DNA from: Mobula hypostoma
Taxonomy: Eukaryota
Length of the DNA stretch: 64,000 nucleotides
Assembly: GCF_963921235.1 (NCBI RefSeq)
Contig: NC_086108.1
Location: 38,194,001-38,258,000 of the forward strand
Direction of reading: 5' to 3'
Positions 13,168 to 56,421 of the stretch are shown piece after piece. Numbering within the stretch: position 1 is the first letter of the stretch; each line of letters starts with the position of its first letter. The notes beneath the pieces are model-generated. The model saw nothing but the letters and a program-made list of their open reading frames with translations, had not been told where the DNA came from and ran no database searches. Both the position numbers and the translations under genes were made by a program.

Positions 13168-16100
13168 TGTAGCGGTGTGCTACACACAGCGCTAGAATAA
13201 CGACACGTAGTCGGTGAGTTGGAGTTGCGATAAAAGAGATTTATTCAAACATCACGGCCTCCTTTAAAGCCTTCCCGTTCCCGCCCTCCCCGAGCGGGAC
13301 TGCCGTGGGGAATGCATATTCGCAGACCCCTTCCCCTGCTGGTGAAGATGGCCTGGCGCCCTTTTTGGGGCCGGCCTCTCTGCCAGCGCGGGCCAGTTCG
13401 TGGGCGCTAGAAAGTGGGTTGCCACATAACTCCCCCCCAGAACCGGCAATACACCCCCCAATGTCCACAGTCTGGATCGGCCTCTGTTTGGGAGGTCTGC
13501 CCCTGCGCCGCGGTGCCTGAGCCTGGACCGGTTGTGCCAAGTCCACATGGGCCGGTTTGAGTCGGTCCACCGTGAAAACCTCCTCTCTCCCCCCAATGTC
13601 CAGCACGAACGTGGACCCGTTGTTCCTGATCACCTTAAATGGCCCCTACAAGGGCCGCTGTAGCGGTGCCCGGTGTCCGCCCCGTCGTACAAAAAGAAAC
13701 TTACAGTTCTGCATGTCTTTGGGTACGTAGGTCAGGCTCTGTCCATGCTGTGAAGTGGGTATGGGGGCCAGGTTACCGAGCCTCTCATGTAGTCTGTCCA
13801 GGACTGCTGCGGGTTCTTCCTTTTGCCCCCTTGGGGCTGGTATGAACTCTCCTGGGACTACCAGGGGTGCGCCATACACCAACTTGGCCGACAAGGTGTG
13901 CAGATCCTCCTTGGGTGCCGAGCGGATTCCGAGCAGGACCCAGGGAAGTTTGTCCACCCAGTTAGGCCCTTCCAGGCGGGCCATGAGAGCCAACTTCAGG
14001 TGACGGTGGAAACGCTCCACTAGTCCGTTCGACTGTGGGTGGTAGGCAGTTGTGTGGTGTAGCTGTAATCCTAAAAGGCTGGCCATAGCTGACCACAGGC
14101 TGGAGGTGAACTGGGTGCCCCTGTCGGAGGCAATGTGGGCTGGTACCTGGAAGCGTGCTACCCAGGTTGCGATCAGTGCTCGGGCGCAGGATTCGGAGGT
14201 GGTGTCGGTGAGCCGGACCGCCACTGACCATCTGGTGAACCGGTCTATCATAATTAGGAGGTTCCTCGCGACACTGGCAGGGGCCCTACGATATCCACAT
14301 GGATGTGGTCGAACCTCCGGCGGGTGGGTTCGAACTGCTGCGGTGGAGCCTTGGTGTGCCGCTGCACCTTGGCCGTTTGTCACTGCATGCACGTTTTGGC
14401 CCATTCACTGACCTGTTTACGAAGTCCATGCTACACAAACCTGTTGGAGACCAGCTGCATGGTTGTCCTGATGGAGGGGTGCGCTAAGTTGTGAATGGAC
14501 TGGAAAACTCGCCGCCACCAGGTTGCTGGGACGACGGGGCGGGGTTAGCCGGTAGCTACGTCACATAGTAGGGTCCTCTCACCTGGGTCTACAGGGAGGT
14601 CTTGGAGCTGCAAACCGCAGACCGCAGTTCTGTAACTAGGGATCTCCGTGTCTGCCTGCTGTGCCTCTGCCAGTGCTGCATAGTCCACCCCCTGGGACAG
14701 GGCCTGTACGGTCGGTCTGGATAGTGCGTCCGCCACGACGTTGTCCTTTCCAGAGACATGCCAGATGTCCGTCGTGTACTCGGAGATGTAGGACAGATGT
14801 CACTGCTGCTGGGACGACCAGGGGTCGGACACCTTAGTGAACGCAAAGGTAAGTGGTTTGTGGTCTGTGAATGCGGTGAAGGGCCTACCTTCTAAGTATC
14901 TGAAATGCTGGATTGCCAGGTATAGTGCCAATAGCTCCCGGTCGAAAGCACTGTATTTGAGTTCAGGTGGTTGTAGGTGTTTGCTGAAGAATGCCAGGGG
15001 TTGCCAGTGACCCTCGATGAGCTGCTCCAGCACTCCACCGACCGCTGTGTTGGATGTGTCCACCGTGAGGGCAGTAGGATGTCCATTCTGGGGTGCATTA
15101 GCATCGTGGCATTTGCCAAGGCTTCTGTGGTTTTAACGAAAGCAGCTGCGGCCACTTCGTCCAGGTAATGTCCTTGCCCTTACTCGACATCAGGGTGAAC
15201 AGGGGGCGCATGATTCGGGCTGCTGAAGGGAGGAAATGGTGGTAGAAATTCACCATACCCACGAATTCCTGCAGGCCTTTGATTGTGTTGGGTCGGGGGA
15301 AGTGGCGGACCGTGTCTACCTTGGCGGGCAGCAGGGTTGCCCCGTCTTTAGTAATCCTGTGGCCCAAGAAGTCAATGGTGTCGAGTCCAAAATGGCATTT
15401 AGCCGGGTTGATTGTAAGGCTGAATTCGCTCAGGCGGGAGTAGAGTTGACGGAGGTGGGACAGATGCTCCTGACGACTACTGCTGGCTATGAGGATGTCA
15501 TCCAAATAGATGAATGCAAAGTCCAGGTCGCGTCCCACCGCGTCCATTAGCCGCTGGAACGTCTGTGCGGCATTCTTTAGGCCGAACGGGGTGATGAGTG
15601 CTGTTTTGGGGATGTCATCCAGATGTACCGGGACTTGATGGTATCCCCAGACGAGGTCTACCTTGGAAAAGATCCTTGCGCCGTGTAGGTTTGCTGCGAA
15701 GTCTTGAATGTGCAGCACAGGGTAGCAGTCTGGCGTTGTAGCCTCTTTCAGTCTGTGGTAGTCACCGCAAGGTCTCCAGCCCCCCATTGCCTTCGGCACC
15801 ATGTGCAGGGGGGAGGCCCATGGGCTGTCGGACTGTCGTATGATCCCTAATTCCTCCATCTTCTTGAACTCCCTCTTCGCCAGTCGGAGCTTGTCCGGGG
15901 GAAGCCTTCGAGCACGGGCGTGGAGGGGTGGTCCCTGGGTCGGGATGTGGTGCTGTACTCTGTGTTTGGGCATGGCTGCCATGAACCGCGGTGTCAGAAC
16001 TGATGGGAAATCCGCCAGGGCCCTGGTGAATTCATCGTCAGACAGTGTGATGGAGTCCAGGTGTGGGGCTGGCAACTTGGCTTCACCCAGGGAGAATGTT

Positions 16101-17442
16101 TAAAAAGTCTTGGTGTGGACTAGTCGCTTCCCTTGCAGGTCGACCAGCAGGCTGTGGGCTCGTAGAAAATCTGCCCCCAGCAGTGGTTGGGCCACGGCGG
16201 CCAGTGTGAAGTCCCATGTGAACCGGCTGGAGCTGAACTGTAGCCGCACCGTGCAGGTGCCGTAGGTTCGTATTGTGCTGCCATTTGCAGCCCTCAGGGT
16301 GGGTCCCGGTTCTCTGTTGCGGGAGTCGTAACTCGTTGGAGGTAAGACGCTGATCTCCGCTCCGGTGTCGACCAAAAAGCGGCGTCCCAACTGCTTGTTC
16401 CAGACATACAGGAGGCTGTCCTGATGGCCAGCTGCCGTAGCCATCAGCGGCGGTTGGGCCTTGGCGTTTTCGGGGAATTTGCCTCTGTGCCCCACCGCTG
16501 GCGGTAGAAGCACCATTGTTCGTTGGGCTCCTCACTCCAGTCACCGAGTATTGTAGGCTGTGCTGCCGGGCCTGGTCTGGTCTGCCGTTGGGCACGCGGC
16601 TTGGTGATCTGTCCGACGGACGCCCCTCTCTCCTTCTTGGCATTCCACAGCACATCTTCCCAGGCCGCCACCTTCCGGGGGTCACTGAAATCTGCGTCGG
16701 ACAGCAACAGGTGTATGTCCTCGTCCAGTTGCTCTAGGAACGCCTGCTCAAACATGAGGCAGGGTTTGTGTCCTTCAGCTAGCGCCGGCGTTTCGTTCAT
16801 TAATGCTGACGGCGGCCTGTCTCCCAAACGATCCAGGTGCAGTAAGCGGGCAGCTCACTCGTGCCATGAGAGTCCAAAAGTCCTTATGAGCAGGGCTTTG
16901 AATGCTGTGTATTTGCCGTCCTCCAGGGGTGACTGTATAAACTCCTCAACTTGTGCAGCTGCCTCCTAGTCGAGGGAGCTCACCACATAGTAGTAACGAG
17001 TGGAATCCGAGGTAATCTGCCAAATGTGGAATTATGCTTCTGCTTGTTCAAACCATAAGCAGGTTCATAGCATCCAGAAGCTTGGCAGTTTTAACGAAAC
17101 TGCGTGAACAGATGCGGCGTCGGTTACCTCTGGTCCAAATATCGTTTGGGCCGTCGGGGCACCAATTGTAGCGGTGTGCTACACCCAGCGCTAGAATAAT
17201 GACACGCAGTCGGTGAGTTGGAATTGTGATAAAAGAGATTTATTCAAACATCGCGGCCTCCTTTAAAGCCTTCCCATTCCCGCCCTCCCCGGGCGGGACT
17301 GCCATGGGGAATGCATATTCGCAGACCCTTCCTGCACGCGGGATTTTCCCCCTGCTAGTGAAGATGGCCTGGCCCCCTTTTTGGGGCCGGCCTCTCTGCC
17401 GGTGCACGCTGGTTCATGTGTGTTAGAAAGTGGGTCGCCACA
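13168..17442 (-). mobile_element. Full-length but frameshifted Ty3/Gypsy LTR retrotransposon
   Basis: TG..CA LTRs 13168-13426 and 17167-17442; TSD ATAT; PPT GGGGGGGAGTTA; PBS TGGTGCCCCGACG (tRNA-Trp-like, 1-nt deletion); domain order gag, PR, RT, RH, IN. Confidence 0.97.
13430..17110 (-). pseudogene. Gypsy gag-pol pseudogene
   Basis: Protease FLVDTGAEIS (16100-16516); RT FAFIYLDDILIAS (15098-16075); RNase H DTSNTAVGGVLEQ (14800-15063); integrase YHPQSNGLVERFHR (13646-14404); split by frameshifts and stops. Confidence 0.93.
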
Positions 17443-26760: not shown

Positions 26761-29055
26761 TTAGCGGAAGTTAGAGAAGTTGATGTTCATGCCATCAGGT
26801 TGGAGGCTACCCAGACAGAATATAAGGTGTTGTTCCTCCAACCTGAGTATGGCTTCATCTTTACAGTAGAGGAGGCCGTGAATAGACACGTCAGAATGGG
26901 AATGGGATGTGGAATTAAAGTGTGTGGCCACTGGGAGATCCTGCTTTCTCTGGCGGACAGAGCGTAGATGTTCAGCAAAGCGGTCTCCCAGTCTGCGTCG
27001 GGTCTCGCCAATATATAAAAGGCAACATTGGGAGCACCGGACGCAGTATATCACCCCAGCCGACTCACAGGTGAAGTGTTGCCTCACCTGGAAGGACTGT
27101 TTGGGGCCCTGAATGGTGGTAAGGGAGGAAGTATAAGGGCATGTGTAGCACTTGTTCCGCTTACACAGATAAGTGCCAGGAGGGAGATCAGTGGGGAGGG
27201 ATGGGGGGGACGAATGGACAAGGGAGTTGTGTAGGGAGCGATCCCTGCGGAATGCAGAGAGAGGCGGGGAGGGAAAGATGTGCTTAGTAGTGGGATCCCG
27301 TTGGAGGTGGCGGAAGTTACGGAGGATAATATGTTGGACCCGGAGGCTGGTGGGGTGGTAGGTGAGGACCAGGGGAACCCTATTCCTAGTGGGGTGGCGG
27401 GAAAATGGAGTGAGAGCAGATGTACGTGAAATGGGGGAGATGCGTTTATGAGCAGAGTTGATAGTGGAGGAAGGGAAACCCCTTTCTTTAAAAAAGGAAG
27501 ACATCTCCCTCGTCCTAGAATGAAAAGCCTCGTCCTGAAAGCAGATGCGGTGGAGACGGAGGAATTGCGAGAAGGGGATGGCGTTTTTGCAAGAGACAGG
27601 GTGAGAAGAGGAATAGTCCAGATAGCTGTGAGAGTCAGTAGGCTTATAGTAGACATCAGTGGATAAGCTGTCTCCAGAGACAGAGACAGAAAGATCTAGA
27701 AAGGGGAAGGAGGTGTCGGAAATGGACCAGGTAAACTTGAGGGGAGGGTGAAAGTTGGAGGCAAAGTTAATAAAGTCAACGAGCTCTGCATGCGTGCAGG
27801 AAGCAGCACCAATGCAGTCGTTGATGTAGCGAAGGAAAAGTGGGGGACAGATACCAGAATAGGCACGGAACATAGATTGCTCCACAAAGCCAACAAAAAG
27901 GTAGGCGTAGCTAGGACCCATACGGGTGCCCATAGCTACACCTTTAGTTTGGAGGAAGTGGGAGGAGCCAAAGGAGAAATTATTAAGAGTAAGGACTAAT
28001 TCCGCTAGACGGCGCAGGGTGGTGGTAGAGGGGAACTGATTAGGTCTGGAATCCAAAAAGAAGCGTAGAGCTTTGAGACCTTCCTGATGGGGGATGGAAG
28101 TACATAGGGACTGGACATCCATGGTGAAAATAAAGCAGTGGGGGCCAGGGAACTTAAAATCATCGAAAAGTTTAAGAGTGTGAGAAGTGTCACGAACATA
28201 GGTAGGAAGGGATTGAACAAGGGAGGATAAAACCGTGTCAAGGTATGCAGAAACGAGTTCGGTGGGGCAGGAGCAAGCTGAGACAATAGGTCGGCCAGGA
28301 CAGGCAGGTTTGTGGATCTTGGGTAGGAGGTAGAAACGGGAAGTGCGAGGTATGGGAACTATAAGGTTGGTAGCAGTGGATGGGAGATCCCCTGAGCGGA
28401 TAAAGTCGGTGATGGTGTGGGAGACAATGGCCTGGTGCTCCTTAGTGGGGTCACGATCGAGGGGTAAATAAGAGGAGGTATCCGCGAGTTGTCGCTGTGC
28501 CTCGGCAAGGTAGAGGTCAGTACGCCAGACTACAACAGCACCCCCCTTATCGGCAGGTTTAATAATAAGGTTAGGATTAGTGTGGAGGGAGTGGAGAGCA
28601 GAGCGTTCCGAAGGAGTGAGGTTGGAATGGGGACAAGGTGCGGTGAAGTCGAGACGGTTGATGTCCCGTTGGCAGTTAGCGATAAAGAGATCCAGAGCAG
28701 GCAGAAGACCGGAGCGGGGTGTCCATGAAGAAGAGGAGGGTTGAAGACGGGAGAAGGGGTCATCGGTGGGGGTGGAAGAGTCCTTGCCGAAGAAGTAGGC
28801 TCGGAGACGGAGACGGCGGAAGAAGAGTTCCGCATCATGACGAATGCGGAACTCGCTGAGGTGTGGGCGAAGGGGGACAAAGGTGAGGCCCTTACTGACG
28901 ACAGAGCACTCTGCCTCAGACAGTTGAAGGTCGGAGGGGATGGTAAAGACCCGGCACGGATGAGAGCTGGGATCGGGGGGGGGAGGGGAGGCTGGGGGTG
29001 TCAATGTAGAGGGGAGGGTTGGGGTGAGAGGAAGATGGAGCCTCTGTGGCCACAC
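26761..29055 (-). CDS. PLE polyprotein frame (RT, Cys linker, GIY-YIG endonuclease), 764 aa, 5'-truncated and probably RT-dead
   Basis: SKGLTFVP and IKPADKGGAVVV N-terminal motifs; GVAMGTRMGPSYA; RYINDC in place of YIDD; CKRNKCYTC linker; VIYCVRCSQCCLLYIGETRRRLGDRFAEH; the track start is GTG at the inversion junction. Confidence 0.9.
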   Translation of the reverse strand: MWPQRLHLPLTPTLPSTLTPPASPPPPDPSSHPCRVFTIPSDLQLSEAECSVVSKGLTFVPLRPHLSEFRIRHDAELFFRRLRLRAYFFGKDSSTPTDDPFSRLQPSSSSWTPRSGLLPALDLFIANCQRDINRLDFTAPCPHSNLTPSERSALHSLHTNPNLIIKPADKGGAVVVWRTDLYLAEAQRQLADTSSYLPLDRDPTKEHQAIVSHTITDFIRSGDLPSTATNLIVPIPRTSRFYLLPKIHKPACPGRPIVSACSCPTELVSAYLDTVLSSLVQSLPTYVRDTSHTLKLFDDFKFPGPHCFIFTMDVQSLCTSIPHQEGLKALRFFLDSRPNQFPSTTTLRRLAELVLTLNNFSFGSSHFLQTKGVAMGTRMGPSYAYLFVGFVEQSMFRAYSGICPPLFLRYINDCIGAASCTHAELVDFINFASNFHPPLKFTWSISDTSFPFLDLSVSVSGDSLSTDVYYKPTDSHSYLDYSSSHPVSCKNAIPFSQFLRLHRICFQDEAFHSRTREMSSFFKERGFPSSTINSAHKRISPISRTSALTPFSRHPTRNRVPLVLTYHPTSLRVQHIILRNFRHLQRDPTTKHIFPSPPLSAFRRDRSLHNSLVHSSPPSLPTDLPPGTYLCKRNKCYTCPYTSSLTTIQGPKQSFQVRQHFTCESAGVIYCVRCSQCCLLYIGETRRRLGDRFAEHLRSVRQRKQDLPVATHFNSTSHSHSDVSIHGLLYCKDEAILRLEEQHLIFCLGSLQPDGMNINFSNFR

Positions 29056-29510
29056 ATTTTAATTCCACATCTCATTCCCATTCTGACATGTCTATCCACG
29101 GCCTCCTCTACTGTAAAGATGAAGCCACACTCAGGTTGGAGGAACAACACCTTATATTCCGTCTGGGTAGCCTCCAACCTGATGGCATGAACATCGACTT
29201 CTCTAACTTCTGCTAATGCCCCACCTCCCCCTCGTACCCCATCTGTTACTTATTTTTATACACACATTCTTTCTCTCACTCTCCTTTTTCTCCCTTTGTC
29301 CCTCTGAATATACCCCTTACCCATCCTCTGGGTCCCCCCCACCCTTGTCTTTCTTCCCAGACCTCCTGTCCCATGATCCTCTCGTATCCCTTTTGCCTAT
29401 CACCTGTCCAGCTCTTGGCTCTATCCCTCCCCCTCCTGTCTTCTCCTATCATTTTGGATCTCCCCCTCCCCCTCCAACTTTCAAATCCCTTACTCACTCT
29501 TCCTTCAGTT

Positions 29511-49582: not shown

Positions 49583-51243
49583 TTTCAGAAAAGGTCGGAC
49601 TTGTTGGATTAGACAGTATGATGGTTATTTTTCTGTAGAATAAATTCCTTATGCTTTTTGTGTTTTTATATAATTACCCATATACATGTAATAGTTCAGT
49701 GTGTTTTCTAGTGGTTGCAGTTGCTCTTGTAACAATATGATTGCAGTTGTGGGTATTACATTGCTTGAATGATGCCTATGTTAGTGGTTGATTCAAGCAA
49801 CAGAAATTGAGTGGATGACTCTTATCTACTGAAATTCCATGGAATTAGCAAACTGGTGTAAGAGGAACAAACCAAGTTAGTTTGTTCTCTATTCCCTTTG
49901 TTCTTTCCCCTGCCACTGGGGTCTCTCTCTCTCTTTCTCTAACTGCACTTTGCTTCATCTTCCTGCCTTCAGCCTGTTTATTCCTGTGGTACATAATAAA
50001 TAATCGCAAGCAGCATGTTTTATGCATCATTCTTGACTTCTGAAAAACTCATTCAAAAACATCAGTTTCCAACCGACTCTAAGGCCAATGATTGGAATCT
50101 GACCAAAGACAATGGCCTAGAAATTGCTTGGCTACATTTTAATGGCATTAAAAGTGTTCTGGGTCACTATAACACATGTTGTGTTCATAAAAATCAAGAT
50201 ATCCAGTTACAATTGTTACGTACCCCGTAACTGGGTTGCCAAACCAGCAGAAATGGATCACTCAGTTGGAGTCTGGAGTACTAGAACTAAGAAAGTTTTA
50301 TTAAAGAGACAAGCAACACAGTAATCGAAAGGATAATAAATGCAACAATTCAACAATGATAACCACACGTGCACAGAATTAAGATAACAGCATCAATCAA
50401 GCTCTATCGTTGTCTAGGGGTTAAATGACCAATTTCAAAATGACTCAAAGTTCAGTCCAGTTTGTAGTTCAGTTCGCAGTAATCGTTGCCATGGCGATGG
50501 ACAAGGTGGGGGGAGAGAGACATAGAATAGGAACAACTGATCATTCAGAACGGCTTCACTCACAGACCAGCCAGATGGCTCACAAACAGCTTTTGGGCAG
50601 GTCCTTGGTGATGTCACCTGAGGTCACCGACTGTGACCCCTCCTCCAGATGCGGTCGATCCTCTGCAGTGAACCCGGCACCCAGGCAAGGGCGGACACAC
50701 ACCGGGTTCCCGCTGATCGTACCTTTCCACCCTTGTCGTTGTCTGGGACTTCTCACCCACTCGTGAGAAGCGCACCGCTTCCAGGGTCTCGTTACCTCGG
50801 GTGGCGTGTGTGTCTGTCTTAGCGAACCTGTCCCTTTTTATCCCCCTGCTGGGGTATCGCCTGTCCATCACTTCAAACAGTTCAGGGCTCAAAGGGGGGA
50901 GCCGCTCCAGACAGCTCTTCCTCCCACATCCCTTCATTACACATCTCCAGACGCTGCTCCATTGTTCCTTATCTCTCCTTCCCCTGAGGGCAGGTGGCAG
51001 ACCAACTGCTGATGCCACTGATGCTAGCCCAGGCCAGCAAACATCTTAATTTTATGTGTATTCTCGTAACACTTCCCCCCTTTAAGGATTTTTACCGGGA
51101 GGTAAAAATTACAAACATGACTCCATTATCTGATACATACACAATATACATCTTTAACAGTTATTTAGCTAATACAGAGAATTTGAAGCTGTCAACACCT
51201 TGACAGACAGTCATCACATTTTCTGTTCCTTTTACACGTGTTA

Positions 51244-54171
51244 TTAATAATCCCTTAGACCAGGCTCCAACTCAGCAAACTTCATAGTGGCCAAAAACAC
51301 TGATGAATTGCGACCAATGTAACCTCTCATTTGGTTTTGTCCCGGACCACAACAACAAGGGTCGTCCCATTCCGACTCAATTTTCCCTCGCAAGGGCTTA
51401 GTAGGAGGGGGACGGGTATTGACCGCAGAGTTATTGCAAAACTTCCTGCAGTACCCCACCATCTCCAAAAGCCTTCTGAGGGCCCTCTTGTCTGTCGGGG
51501 TTGGGAGGTCAGCGATAGCCTGCACTGTAGCTTGCATCACTGCCAGCTGCCCCTGTGTCACCACAATTCCCAGGTAAGTGACATTCGCGTGGCCGAATTC
51601 ATTTTTTCCAAGGTTCACTATCAAGCTGGCTTCAGACAGCCGTGTTAAATTGCCAATACACACCTCTGTGTTCATCAGCCCTTTAGTCACTGAATTACTC
51701 AAAAAATATGGGTGTTGTTTGCTTGGCTGCCCTATTGTAACCGACATAACCCAACGTCCCAGTTCTTTGCATTTCCTCGGGACAATCAAACACATGGGTG
51801 CGAGTCGTTTAATTACTCCTTCGGGGATTAAGGGAGAGACCTTATCAGTAGACCTGGCCAAAACAATAGCCTTCTCCCATCTGACCGATCCCATCCTAAT
51901 CTTTTCAAAATGGTTTTTTCCTCTTATCAAGGGGCCCCTAGCTTCATTGATTTCCACGCTAACACCGACTAGGTTTGTTAGCATATCAAAAGCCGGTGAC
52001 CGTCTCAGTTCGCGTCGGTCATGATCAATAACATTTTTCCCCCTGGGCAGCCGGTAACTCTCTTTCATGATTCCACCAACTGTTTCCTCCAGCACCGCAA
52101 AATGTCCACCGGGGGGTACCTCGTGGGCCATGTTAAAAACCTCATCCCCGTAACTCTTTTGCACCACCCCCCACTCCTCATCTGCGGATGCTGTACTTGA
52201 TTTCCCTTTCTTCCTTAGCACTTCCTCATCCGCACAATAGCTTGTCAAGGCTGTGTCAGAGAGAGCGGTCTCGGCAAAAACCATCAGCCCCTCGTCTCGC
52301 TCCTGCGTCTGCACAAATTCTTTCCTGGCTACTGCTACGTCCGTCCCAGCTCCCTCACTACCTCTTATCTCACTACACCCTGTCTCATACAAGGTTGGCA
52401 GAAATGTTTCAGCCAAATTCACCATCGCGGGCGGGGCCTCCATGCTGGCAGGCTGACCCGTCAATCTCACAACTGGGAACACGATTCCTCCGGCGATGTC
52501 ATTACCGAGCAAGACTTCCACGTCTTTCATCGGTAATTCGGACCTCACCCCGATCGTGACTAGTCCAGAGACCAGGTTGCTCTGTAAATGTATCTGGTGC
52601 AAAGGGACTGACTCTGTCCCTTCCCCAACACCTTTGACCTCTACCTCCCCAGTCTGGGTCTCTGAGCTAAACTCTAATACACTCTTCAGTATTAGTGACT
52701 GACACGCTCCCGTGTCTCTCCAGATCCGCACTGGAACTGGTTTTAACCTCTTTTTCATTGACACCAGTCCGGCCGAGATAAACCTCTCGCGCCCTTCCTG
52801 GACTTTTTCAGACCTGTCCTTCCCTAGCGGTTCGCTTAACAGCTCAATACAGCCATTCAAAATTTCCGCTTTTCCTTTCCCCGTCTCCTTCCTTGGGGCA
52901 AAGCACCTGGACGCAAAGTGTCCGACTTTCCCACAATTATAACAGACGACCCCAGGAGACTTCCTACCAGACTGCTCCCGGTCTACCTTATCCTTTTCAC
53001 TAGTCCCCGGCTTACTTTCTGACTTTTCCGGTGGACTCTCCCCGCCGTCCTGACTACCCTTCTGGTAGCCTTTACTCGGGGCAACCTTCATTTTATGCGT
53101 CAACGCATACTCATCCGCTAACTTAGCAGTTGCGGCTAACGTGGCTGCCTCTTTCTCATCGAGGTAGGGTCTCATACCCTCAGGGACACAACCTTTAAAC
53201 TGCTCAATCAGAACCAGTTGCAGCAGTCTGTCATAATCCCCCTCTACCCCTTTCGAGGCGCACCAACGCTCACAATATGTTTGCATCTCACGAGCAAACT
53301 CCAAATACGTGCGGTCCCACCGCTTCCTCGCATTCCGGAACCTCTGCCGGTATGCCTCCGGGACCAACTCATAAATCCTGAGGATGGCCTCCTTCACCAC
53401 CTCATACTTCTGGGCATCTTCCGCGGATAAGGCGGAGTAAGCTTGTTGGGCCTTCCCTTTCAGTACACTCTGAAGTAAGACAACCCACTTATCCCTCGGC
53501 CATTCCTGACTTATAGCTACTTTTTCGAAGTGGAGAAAGTACCGATCCACATCGGTATCGTCAAATGGGGGAACCAGCCTAACCTCCTGGGTCGCCCGGA
53601 ACCCTCCACCTTGGTTCGGCACGAGCCCCTGCTCGGCCCTTATCTTTAACTTCTCCAGCTCAAATTCCCTTTCCCTCTGTTTCTCCTCTCTCTCCAACTG
53701 TCTGTCCCTCTCTCTCTCTTCTCTCTCCAACTGTCTTTCTCTCTCTTGCCTTTCTAACTCTCTCTCTTTCTCCTGCCTTTCTAACTCTCTCTCTTTCTCC
53801 TGCCTTTCTAACTCTCTCTCTTTCTCCTGCCTTTCTAACTCTCTCTCTTTCTCCTGCCTTTCTAACTCTCTCTCTTTCTCCTGCCTTTCTAACTGCCGTA
53901 CCCGGAACTCGTGCTCGAGTCTCAGTTTTTCAAGCTGTACCTGTACCGCGTCTCCAGCAGGTTTTTCAATAGACACCTCCCCCAGCTCACCTTGGGGAAA
54001 CACACCTTTAGATACATAGTGCTCTACAATAGCTCTGTGTATCTCCTCTCTCCTCATTGTTGACTTCACCTTAGCAAGATTCACCCGTTTTGCCACAGCT
54101 ATCAATTCCGATTTCCTGGCATCCTCTAATGCCTCCAAGGTCGGCGCCTTTATAAATTCCTCAACCTCCAT
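51244..54171 (-). CDS. Gag (SCAN-like capsid, CCHC knuckle)-protease fused to collapsed integrase and RT remnants, 975 aa
   Basis: PEAYRQRFR...LVLIEQF...AKLADEY; CYNCGKVGHFASRC; IWRDTGACQSLI; MAHEVPPGGHFAV (IN zinc-binding relic); KNEFGHANVTYLG and RRLLEMVGYCRKF (RT thumb relic); no YxDD or DDE. Confidence 0.9.
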   Translation of the reverse strand: MEVEEFIKAPTLEALEDARKSELIAVAKRVNLAKVKSTMRREEIHRAIVEHYVSKGVFPQGELGEVSIEKPAGDAVQVQLEKLRLEHEFRVRQLERQEKERELERQEKERELERQEKERELERQEKERELERQEKERELERQERERQLEREERERDRQLEREEKQREREFELEKLKIRAEQGLVPNQGGGFRATQEVRLVPPFDDTDVDRYFLHFEKVAISQEWPRDKWVVLLQSVLKGKAQQAYSALSAEDAQKYEVVKEAILRIYELVPEAYRQRFRNARKRWDRTYLEFAREMQTYCERWCASKGVEGDYDRLLQLVLIEQFKGCVPEGMRPYLDEKEAATLAATAKLADEYALTHKMKVAPSKGYQKGSQDGGESPPEKSESKPGTSEKDKVDREQSGRKSPGVVCYNCGKVGHFASRCFAPRKETGKGKAEILNGCIELLSEPLGKDRSEKVQEGRERFISAGLVSMKKRLKPVPVRIWRDTGACQSLILKSVLEFSSETQTGEVEVKGVGEGTESVPLHQIHLQSNLVSGLVTIGVRSELPMKDVEVLLGNDIAGGIVFPVVRLTGQPASMEAPPAMVNLAETFLPTLYETGCSEIRGSEGAGTDVAVARKEFVQTQERDEGLMVFAETALSDTALTSYCADEEVLRKKGKSSTASADEEWGVVQKSYGDEVFNMAHEVPPGGHFAVLEETVGGIMKESYRLPRGKNVIDHDRRELRRSPAFDMLTNLVGVSVEINEARGPLIRGKNHFEKIRMGSVRWEKAIVLARSTDKVSPLIPEGVIKRLAPMCLIVPRKCKELGRWVMSVTIGQPSKQHPYFLSNSVTKGLMNTEVCIGNLTRLSEASLIVNLGKNEFGHANVTYLGIVVTQGQLAVMQATVQAIADLPTPTDKRALRRLLEMVGYCRKFCNNSAVNTRPPPTKPLRGKIESEWDDPCCCGPGQNQMRGYIGRNSSVFLATMKFAELEPGLRDY
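53761..53894 (-). repeat. 27-bp coding tandem repeat x5 (ERQEKEREL)
   Basis: tctctctttctcctgcctttctaactc repeated; degenerate copies continue to about 53650. Confidence 0.95.
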
Positions 54172-54247
54172 TTCTGCTGTTTGTCTTTTCTTTCTTTCGG
54201 GAATTTTAACCCAATCAATTTACTCCGTCCCAAATTTAGCGTTCAAA

Positions 54248-54265
54248 ATCCCGGACGAGCCCCCA
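54248..54265 (-). other. Primer-binding site complementary to tRNA-Pro
   Basis: TGGGGGCTCGTCCGGGAT, the canonical 18-nt tRNA-Pro PBS, 4 nt from the 5' LTR. Confidence 0.95.
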
Positions 54266-56421
54266 CTTATGTTACGTACCCCGTAACTGGGTTGCCAAAC
54301 CAGCAGAAATGGATCACTCAGTTGGAGTCTGGAGTACTAGAACTAAGAAAGTTTTATTAAAGAGACAAGCAACACAGTAATCGAAAGGATAATAAATGCA
54401 ACAATTCAACAATGATAACCACACATGTGCACAGAATTAAGATAACAGCATCAATCAAGCTCTATCGTTGTCTAGGGGTTAAATGACCAATTTCAAAATG
54501 ACTCAAAGTTCAGTCCAGTTTGTAGTTCAGTTCGCAGTAATCGTTGCCATGGCGATGGACAAGGTGGGGGGAGAGAGACATAGAATAGGAACAACTGATC
54601 ATTCAGAACGGCTTCACTCACAGACCAGCCAGATGGCTCACAAACAGCTTTTGGGCAGGTCCTTGGTGATGTCACCTGAGGTCACCGACTGTGACCCCTC
54701 CTCCAGATGCGGTCGATCCTCTGCAGTGAACCCGGCACCCAGGCAAGGGCGGACACACACCGGGTTCCCGCTGATCGTACCTTTCCACCCTTGTCGTTGT
54801 CTGGGACTTCTCACCCACTCGTGAGAAGCGCACCGCTTCCAGGGTCTCGTTACCTCGGGTGGCGTGTGTGTCTGTCTTAGCGAACCTGTCCCTTTTTATC
54901 CCCCTGCTGGGGTATCGCCTGTCCATCACTTCAAACAGTTCAGGGCTCAAAGGGGGGAGCCGCTCCAGACAGCTCTTCCTCCCACATCCCTTCATTACAC
55001 ATCTCCAGACGCTGCTCCATTGTTCCTTATCTCTCCTTCCCCTGAGGGCAGGTGGCAGACCAACTGCTGATGCCACTGATGCTAGCCCAGGCCAGCAAAC
55101 ATCTTAATTTTATGTGTATTCTCGTAACACAATGTACAGAGTACAGCATTATTGACTTTCTCAGTGTAAAACTGCACTATGTCAACTTTAGTGCAATGTT
55201 CTCTTTAGATCTATTACACCTTCTCAGACTTTATGACATTTAGCCTAGCAACAAGCTCAACAACCAGCACGCTAAAAGACATATAATAACAAAGCTAACA
55301 ACACTCTACCAGCTATTGGCAAGTATTATTGCTGAATAAGTGGATGATTCAATGATAGGATGGATTGAAAGCATGCTCCCAAGGATTACAGAGATAGGAA
55401 CAGGTTGGTCTCACAGCTGGCATCAGGCAAGAGATACAGACACCAGAAGTCACAGGCTTCACAGCAGATTGTTTCAAAAACAGTTACTTACTCTCAAACA
55501 TTTTATTTCTTGAACCTAACTGCACAACTCAACTCACAACCTCAGTCCAGCAATAGACTTTGATTTTTTTTGCCCTAATTGTGATTTTTCTTGTATAATT
55601 TTCAATAATTTTTCTAACAAAGATGCAGTTTTGTGGAGGGTGAACAGGCAGAGGTTGTGGTCCATGTAGGTCCCAATGATATTGGTAGGATGAGTGAAGA
55701 GGTTCTGCATAGGGAATTTGGTGTGAAGTTAAATGGCAGGGCCTCCAGGTTTGTGATCTCAAGATTGCTACCCATGCCACATGCTAGTGAGGTCAGAACT
55801 AGGAAGATTATACTATATAATATGTGGCTAAGGAGCTGGTGTAGGAGGGAGGGCATAAGATTTTTGGATCATTGGGCTCTCTTCCAGGGAAGGTGGGTCG
55901 TGTGGAGAAGGGACAGTTTGCACCTGACCAGGATGGGGACTAATATCCTAGAAGGAAGGTTTGTCAATACTGTACAGTGGGGTTTGAACTAGAGTTGCAG
56001 GGGGAATGGAACCAGAGAGCCAGAATAGTTAATGGAGAGGTTGTGGAGGCAGTTGTTGGTGAGACCACAGAAAAAGTTAAGAATCAAAAAGTAGAGCATA
56101 GTACAACTAGCGTCCTCAGCTGCACATATTTCAATGCAAGAGGAATCATAGGAAAGATGAGGTTACTTGCATAAGGACAGAGCCTATGTGCAGTGACGAG
56201 ATGCTGTTGAAAAGGCACAACTGCACTCAAAAGGATGAGTTGCAATATAAAAGGCAGATAAAATCGAAAAGGGTGAATACAGCACTGAAGGTGTTATATT
56301 TGAATGAATGCAGTATATGAAGTAAAGTAGATGAATTTGCAGCACATTTGCAGGTTGGCAGGTTTGATGTTATGGGCATCACTGAATCATGGCTGAAAGC
56401 GTATAGCTAGGAGATTAATGT

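Follow-up and report, generated by a model that had tools for sequence, protein, structure and literature searches.

Non-autonomous long terminal repeat (LTR) retrotransposons that keep Gag, and in part the protease, while lacking a working reverse transcriptase (RT) and integrase are described from plants, where TR-GAG, RLG_Quinta (with its partner RLG_Cereba), RLG_Sabrina and the pol-less Athila elements amplify as families. According to the available portions of these reports, sugar beet holds 28 GAG/PROT and 15 pol-remnant families, with eight families keeping GAG/PROT together with decayed pol domains, and the open reading frames (ORFs) of Athila are under purifying selection (PMC11302176, PMC2410132, PMC13570524). 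In the mouse, excerpts of the relevant papers describe 1Δ1, a non-autonomous intracisternal A particle (IAP) element whose fused gag-pol ORF acts in cis and which has produced more new insertions than its helper (PMC6466679, PMC7411935). Gmr1-like Gypsy elements, in turn, are reported to combine a SCAN-type capsid with a single ORF and the order protease (PR), integrase (IN), RT and RNase H (bioRxiv 10.1101/2025.03.03.638093, consulted in part). The element considered here lies on the minus strand at positions 50214-55129 of a 64,000-nucleotide stretch of the devil ray Mobula hypostoma (contig NC_086108.1, positions 38,194,001 to 38,258,000; hereafter the window), and it belongs to a non-autonomous Gypsy family of the Gmr1 type, long-lived and multi-copy in Mobula rays, which replicates without an RT or integrase of its own. 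Taken as a whole, the reading that this family is non-autonomous and under selection for an open frame is very probably correct.

The window element has the SCAN-type capsid, the PR-IN-RT-RNase H order among its relics, the LTRs, primer-binding site (PBS), polypurine tract (PPT) and short target-site duplication (TSD), and the related RT of Gmr1-like elements, a clade name given here on the ground of architecture. It shares the capsid, the domain order and about 42-46% protein identity with two full-length relatives from Pristis pectinata (P0090 and P0098), but it is without the integrase core, the RT fingers, the YxDD motif and most of RNase H, and its ORF spans 975 amino acids (aa) against 1549-1585. 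It is therefore no autonomous element, which would have an intact RT, RNase H and integrase core; the cores are deleted and have no Pfam match. Like the plant families, it keeps Gag (some of them also keep protease), has no working RT or IN and has amplified as a family, with 21 annotated copies and a young insertion, and it resembles TR-GAG and Quinta also in the purifying selection on Gag-PR (2 of 87 conserved columns changed, at the protein level only). Unlike them, it carries pol coding beyond the protease: the pol of the plant families is described, in the portions of the reports at hand, as absent or as decayed and patchy and not as kept in frame through a series of deletions, whereas the Mobula case concerns a Gmr1 element of a vertebrate, in which 400 aa of pol relic are still in frame. 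The mouse 1Δ1 element differs in being an endogenous retrovirus with one recent 1.9-kb deletion that includes part of gag, and in needing Gag in trans, as its accessible descriptions have it; the Mobula family has whole Gag and protease, at least 12 successive in-frame insertions or deletions (indels) and deep amino-acid decay.

The insertion is very young, with LTRs that are identical except for one indel. Both run from TG to CA, and comparison of the 5' LTR (54270-55129, 860 bp) with the 3' LTR (50214-51071, 858 bp) gives 0 mismatches and a single 2-bp indel at 54425-54426; the 3' LTR has a single AATAAA, at LTR position 770 (window 50302). The element is flanked by a 4-bp TSD (CAAT) at 50210-50213 on the left and 55130-55133 on the right. 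An 18-nt PBS, which we take to be of the tRNA-Pro type, lies 4 nt inside the 5' LTR (54248-54265), and the PPT (51072-51083) abuts the 3' LTR; no tRNA genes were found in the 64-kb window. The interior measures 3198 bp, 92% of which is one ATG-initiated ORF (54171-51244, minus strand like all coding features of the element below) for Gag, protease and a collapsed pol tail.

Above cut-off, Pfam recognizes in the 975-aa ORF only a SCAN domain (aa 271-360; 48 bits against a cut-off of 27) and a zf-CCHC knuckle (aa 409-423; 52903-52947). The N-terminal helical domain and coiled coil of Gag (aa 1-180) occupy 53632-54171, as judged from the sequence and a structure model; the coiled coil is encoded by a 27-bp tandem array of seven copies at 53708-53894, whose length varies among sister copies and produces most of their 939-1004 aa length range. 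The first 60 aa (53992-54171) form a small, confident helical domain in the structure model, present in the full-length relatives as well and with no Pfam match; its fold may be a helix-extension-helix of the SAP/LEM kind. The capsid (aa 186-360; 53092-53616) is defined by Pfam and by conserved columns and is also modelled with confidence, while the aspartic protease (aa 460-560; 52492-52794, with DTGA at 52716-52705) is defined by conserved columns and by a structure model in which aa 461-560 reach a predicted local distance difference test score (pLDDT) of 78-94. The best fold matches of that model are retropepsins; the top one has an E value of 1.7e-3, and no match reaches 1e-3. Of the 68 windows of the element scored for RNA folding, the strongest lies between the capsid and nucleocapsid coding regions (52961-53080, minus strand; z -4.4).

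The tail behind the protease is a patchwork of pol relics. None of RVT_1, rve, Integrase_H2C2 or RNase H is found by Pfam in the 975-aa ORF, and the only enzymatic trace by sequence is the match of aa 842-919 to Ty3 RT (E 3e-4). Specifically, alignment to parent-like copies identifies an integrase N-terminal relic (aa 646-720; 52012-52236) that keeps both zinc-finger histidines and has lost the cysteine half at the integrase-core deletion near 52012. It is followed by a relic of the integrase C-terminal end and the RT N-terminus (aa 721-822; 51706-52011), placed in phase against P0106 and P0112 despite low identity to P0112, and by a relic of the end of the RT palm and the thumb (aa 826-939; 51355-51696), in which the YxDD position reads CIGN and the next 18 codons are gone. 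After the loss of about 86 codons comes an in-frame relic of the C-terminal part of RNase H (aa 940-964; 51280-51354), and the RNase H end proper (51192-51279) contains at least three frame-breaking indels in a frameshift-aware comparison, with the family stop at 51244-51246 and the ancestral-frame stop at 51192-51194. The first automatic alignments had assigned the middle of the tail to the integrase core; this was replaced by the frameshift-aware comparison with P0106 and P0112, and because the placement shifted to the integrase C-terminal end and RT start, the low tail pLDDT in the full model is weak evidence. A tail-only model has a mean pLDDT of 31, with only its aa 277-297 above 50, and says little about the fold, as the tail models rest on shallow alignments.

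These results largely agree with a prior description of the locus, the sequence-only reading. The LTRs differing by one 2-bp indel, the TSD, PBS and PPT, the interior of about 3.2 kb with its 975-aa ORF and the intact Gag and protease are all confirmed, the last by the SCAN score, the CCHC match and a protease model that folds as a retropepsin. The integrase zinc-finger, YxDD-position and thumb relics are found where they had been placed, and the assignment to Gmr1-like Gypsy agrees with the capsid, the relic order and the RT-relic tree. Three details need amendment: the patchwork tail, put at the last third or so, makes up 41% of the ORF; the out-of-frame RNase H end after the stop exists, but the two motifs quoted for it sit in different frames; and RNase H does not lie wholly past the stop, since about 25 RNase H-derived codons remain in frame inside the ORF.

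The losses can be read against relatives that still hold the missing parts. Both Pristis relatives are single ORFs (1549 aa in P0090, 1585 aa in P0098) in which Pfam orders SCAN, CCHC, integrase, RT and RNase H, and parent-like pieces persist in Mobula, namely P0009, whose integrase N-terminus is intact, and P0113, which spans all of RT-RNase H and is the sole full piece of this kind found in M. hypostoma, itself without the first catalytic aspartate. Against such pieces the window copy lacks about 290 integrase-core codons near 52012 and about 130 codons for the RT fingers near 51700, in addition to the 18 codons past the YxDD position, the RNase H codons and smaller pieces. P0106, from M. 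birostris, represents an older stage, which had already shed the integrase core and RT fingers but retains the segment after YxDD; Integrase_H2C2 still scores 39 bits in it, and Pfam also scores the RT end. In a tree of the RT relic, several forks of which are weakly supported, P0106 branches first, then P0103 with P0104, then P0102 with P0105 (M. birostris) and finally a young M. hypostoma clade that includes the window copy, whose relic groups with P0106 and then with P0113 and the full-length elements. The alignments thus indicate that the pol deletions were stepwise and that intermediates are preserved, and the branching order implies a collapse older than the split of M. hypostoma and M. 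birostris and ongoing afterwards. Erosion by deletion goes on in the youngest subfamilies. A net 42-nt in-frame deletion at 52231-52277, seen in contigs of both DNA runs X1 and X9, suggests another eroded subfamily.

Protein searches recover 21 annotated sister proteins with the collapsed tail, 18 in M. hypostoma and three in M. birostris, a count that leaves out P0006, P0007 and P0087, which end before the collapsed region; the family was sampled through annotated ORFs only. P0001 (M. hypostoma) is 97% identical to the window ORF over its whole length. The same terminal stop is reached by 11 of the 21, and five have no break anywhere along their length, nor does the window copy. At the DNA level, 137 LTR-edge contigs in run X1 and 106 in run X9 run into unrelated flanks. 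One contig in each of the two runs matches the left flank and continues 535/536 letters past 50213 without entering the LTR; judged by their extent, both may represent the empty site, which would fit a recent, unfixed insertion. A GDSL-esterase-like relic at 55618-55992 (plus strand), probably an ORF1 fragment of a long interspersed nuclear element, starts near the expected end of the empty-site contig (55668). The summed contig depth of X1 (1.7e5-5.4e5 inside, 11-20 at single flank positions) was not used as copy number, and since none of the 23 runs is recorded as RNA and the nature of X5 and X13 is a guess, their contigs are not taken as evidence of expression. No relative was detected by searching metagenome and viral contig collections with the tail, Gag-PR and P0179, and matches in the ESM Atlas were confined to RT/RNase H clusters with scores of at most 0.86, a lead only.

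The tail, for all its decay, has remained open. Its 400 codons contain no stop in the ORF frame, against 30 and 31 per 399 codons in the other two frames, and each of the 12 clear indels found from the protease to codon 964 preserves the phase. Eight of these postdate the P0106 stage and, as that stage already lacked the integrase core and RT fingers, fell when no downstream enzyme remained to protect. If one indel in three fell in phase, the chance of such a series would be 2e-6 for the 12 and 1.5e-4 for the eight; at one in two, it would be 2.4e-4 and 0.004. As controls, multiples of three account for none of the 10 LTR indels listed and none of the three from 51280 onward, past the terminal frameshift. 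Frame-breaking indels separate the window copy from the ancestral frame only in the last 90 nt, and, with about 40% of the ORF gone, the family stop and the ancestral-frame stop are still no more than 52 nt apart. Moreover, about 0.60 of the 0.61 substitutions per site in the RT relic fall on internal branches with no stop (0.046 for P0113). Neutral simulation predicts 2.9 stops for 60 amino-acid differences, 5.2 for 100 and 7.2 for 130, and the probability of no stop is 0.04, 0.003 and 0 in 2000 simulations, respectively; about 60 differences is a strict lower bound for the tail, and block identities give more than 100.

Conversely, the encoded residues of the tail have not been kept. Relative-rate counts set the window lineage against a parent-like sister (P0009 or P0113), with Pristis, Hypanus or P0111 as outgroup. 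They are balanced for the C-terminal half of the capsid (3 vs 4 for the parent lineage) and, depending on the outgroup, 6 vs 10 or 16 vs 10 for the protease, whereas window-lineage changes far outnumber those of the parent lineage in the integrase relic (23 vs 4 and 29 vs 3; p no greater than 3e-4) and in the RT relic against P0113 (31 vs 1, 27 vs 4 and 26 vs 2; p no greater than 3.4e-5). Among columns conserved across 29-36 full-length relatives, changes affect 1 of 57 in the capsid and 1 of 30 in the protease, against 9 of 16 in the integrase relic and 11 of 37 in the RT relic, with the misaligned P0009 figures beyond aa 720 excluded. Contig variants point the same way: 28 ORF sites, among the 40 of 376 variants listed, comprise six synonymous and 12 nonsynonymous changes in the tail and six and four in Gag-PR, with no stops and a neutral expectation of 29% synonymous. 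On these comparisons, Gag and protease are conserved under purifying selection, while the amino acids of the tail evolve close to neutrally.

A family that supplies Gag and protease and is selected for continuous translation through its tail, and not for the tail's sequence, is the explanation we narrowly favour. The RNA of the element would serve as both mRNA and genome; translated into a Gag-protease-tail protein, it would supply particle protein and protease, with RT and integrase taken from a full-length Gmr1 relative within the same particle. Selection in the tail would then guard the passage of the ribosome and not the polypeptide. A stop placed directly after the protease would lengthen the distance from stop to AATAAA from 942 to 2145 nt (a 3' untranslated region (UTR) of about 2.1 kb in place of about 0.94 kb), and the longer 3' UTR would expose the unspliced RNA to long-3'UTR decay of the nonsense-mediated decay (NMD) type or to similar surveillance. 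Since ribosome passage is what selection would protect, in-frame deletions and missense changes would be tolerated, and early stops or frameshifts would rarely found subfamilies. Long-3'UTR NMD is reported, in the available parts of two sources, to act on unspliced retroviral RNA, and viruses are said there to counter it in cis or by readthrough (PMC2925335, PMC7566565). Rous sarcoma virus, with its stability element, and Moloney murine leukaemia virus, with its readthrough, likewise have unspliced genomic RNA with a long stretch past the gag stop, but they rely on a cis element or on occasional readthrough, whereas the Mobula element would have its dead pol translated in full (same sources, in part).

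Several expectations of the sequence-only reading meet their outcome here. The selected, non-autonomous Gmr1-type family with an open frame that it proposed is supported by the shared deletions and in-phase indels. The copy is not unique, as the 21 sister proteins, the two Mobula species and the many LTR-flank junctions attest; the deletions are not assembly artefacts, because they are shared between loci and species; and hidden Markov model searches find no intact RT or IN core in the ORF. Random frameshifting of the tail among sister copies, which it had named as a sign against selection, is seen in part, in that copies do break after insertion and tail amino acids are near neutral, but the shared indels keep the frame. 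Among the roles it suggested for the tail, NMD-type avoidance fits best, and a scaffold or decoy fits less well because the tail sequence is relaxed and no fold is predicted. No literature was found on long ORFs that shield from processing into PIWI-interacting RNAs, and that idea is not used.

Other observations weigh against selection for continuous translation. Of the 21 annotated copies, ten stop short. One frameshift, near codon 877, is common to P0003 and P0004, which lie on different contigs, and another, near codon 750, to P0005 and P0107; this may reflect replication of a truncated master or recurrent slips. Two ambiguous indels, near 51740 and 51420, were left out of the 12. The 12 of 64 indels listed include two +4 insertions within the ORF, with a depth of about 3% in run X9, two of the four ORF joints listed are not multiples of three (15 of 49 joints being listed), and deletions at coding microhomologies may be in frame oftener than once in three. 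With regard to sequence constraint, the Hypanus outgroup gives a window-lineage excess in the protease against two other parent-like copies (14 vs 2 and 13 vs 1), an excess not seen with the Pristis outgroup, and the synonymous contrast between tail and Gag-PR is small and lacks significance (Fisher p 0.24). The RT relic is biased towards keeping conserved columns (11 of 37 changed, against 21 of 36 variable ones; p 0.019), which pure frame selection does not predict, with the qualification that the variable columns include parent-lineage changes. An intact helper in Mobula was not found by protein searches, which cannot show absence, and many non-autonomous LTR families are described, in the portions of the sources available, as replicating without any long ORF (PMC13570524, PMC10924933).

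That bias is the best evidence for the chief competitor, a rather improbable one on balance, in which the tail polypeptide itself would act in cis, much as the mouse 1Δ1 Gag-Pol fusion does, and give a packaging advantage; the RT-thumb or integrase remnant could help the nascent protein to keep hold of its own RNA, to assemble together with the Gag-Pol of the helper or to bring the protease into dimers. A role as protein would predict the open frame, the RT relic is the only part of the tail with pLDDT above 50, and the 1Δ1 fusion protein is stated, in the accessible text, to act in cis (PMC6466679, PMC7411935). Yet both the integrase relic and the RT relic have evolved at strongly raised rates, their difference in conserved columns is not significant (p 0.12), the youngest subfamilies are still eroding, the frameshift shared by P0003 and P0004 removes most of the thumb, and the tail shows no confident overall fold, weak evidence as it is. 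The opposite possibility, that the open frame is a mere by-product, would have it selected only while the downstream enzymes worked, later deletions falling in frame through codon-phased microhomology and the database displaying the copies that are open. The large deletions do join short repeated residues on both sides, as seen by eye, sampling is limited to annotated ORFs and nearly half of the copies are broken in the tail; what makes this account unlikely is that the eight clear indels after the P0106 stage are all in frame, that the changes lie on internal branches and hence do not stem from single-copy ascertainment, that no stops occur where at least five are expected and that all three indels past the terminal frameshift break the frame.

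Retention of the tail as RNA, for packaging, dimerisation or export signals or for a minimal genome length, with translation only unfolding the RNA or handing it to Gag, earns still less credence. The tail has never been lost outright, and two of its 18 windows fold better than shuffles (z below -2); its mean z, however, is -0.19, weaker than in Gag-PR (-0.6, with four of 27 windows), the folding-window scan shows no tail-specific RNA structure, substitutions and deletions are scattered over the entire tail and RNA function alone does not require an open frame. Lastly, a domesticated host gene is hardly credible. It is suggested by the host-gene names that NCBI gives to some sister proteins (MACC1, PPM1Lb and UBE2G2 isoforms), but the ORF departs from the single-copy, fixed, orthologous state without young LTRs expected of such a gene: its LTRs are identical but for the indel and flanked by a TSD, it has many dispersed loci and the X1 and X9 contigs resemble an empty site. 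The names P0001, P0086, P0081, P0113 and P0112 bear as host-gene isoforms (MACC1, PPM1Lb, UBE2G2, HSPB1-associated protein 1 and trimeric intracellular cation channel A) are misleading, and the finding accounts for several such misnamed gene models in rays.

Gag-keeping non-autonomous LTR families in plants and one in-frame gag-pol fusion in the mouse are already known. The Mobula family uncouples selection on the reading frame from selection on the encoded protein, two things that are usually found joined, along a ladder of intermediates in two ray species in which the frame is kept while catalytic residues and whole domains vanish. A standing question also becomes testable with existing genome and RNA-seq data, namely whether it is translation itself, through cis packaging or escape from NMD, that determines which defective retroelements succeed in spreading. 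No published account of this family or of frame-kept Gmr1 pol relics was found by title and abstract; Repbase, Dfam and supplements were outside the scope, so the family may already be catalogued. As a tentative generalisation, which we hold to be somewhat doubtful, single-ORF Gmr1 elements may repeatedly yield "frame-locked" non-autonomous families in which a dead pol persists as a spacer that is translated, or as a cis-acting remnant, because their genomic RNA must be translated to the native stop if it is to survive and enter particles. If so, such parasites would form a distinct class that also feeds Gag and protease to helpers, the Mobula series would provide its first dated natural experiment and P0179 and P0218 would be independent repeats.

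ORFs that skip pol blocks were found in 16 of 157 screened proteins (146 Gag-PR representatives and 11 already in hand), including the window copy, P0001 and P0014. In P0179 and P0218, two ORFs of the Gmr1 type, the integrase core is missing with no loss of frame and from almost the same position, and P0179 has decayed further, being degenerate and having lost most of its RT; both are without DNA context and may be gene-prediction artefacts, hence leads only. In Hemitrygon akajei, the Gag(-protease) proteins P0014 and P0017 share a non-pol tail of about 300 aa (60% identical) in which the C-terminal end of the capsid recurs; they may mark an independent pol-less Gmr1 family whose long tail is open.

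Elsewhere in the window, a second, fragmented Gypsy element at 13646-16969 (minus strand) has RVT_1 before rve, the usual order, and no DNA similarity to the 50214-55129 element. Finally, an open 765-aa frame at 26761-29058 (minus strand), with no Pfam match at E 0.01, has by eye the look of a Penelope-type RT with a C-terminal endonuclease.

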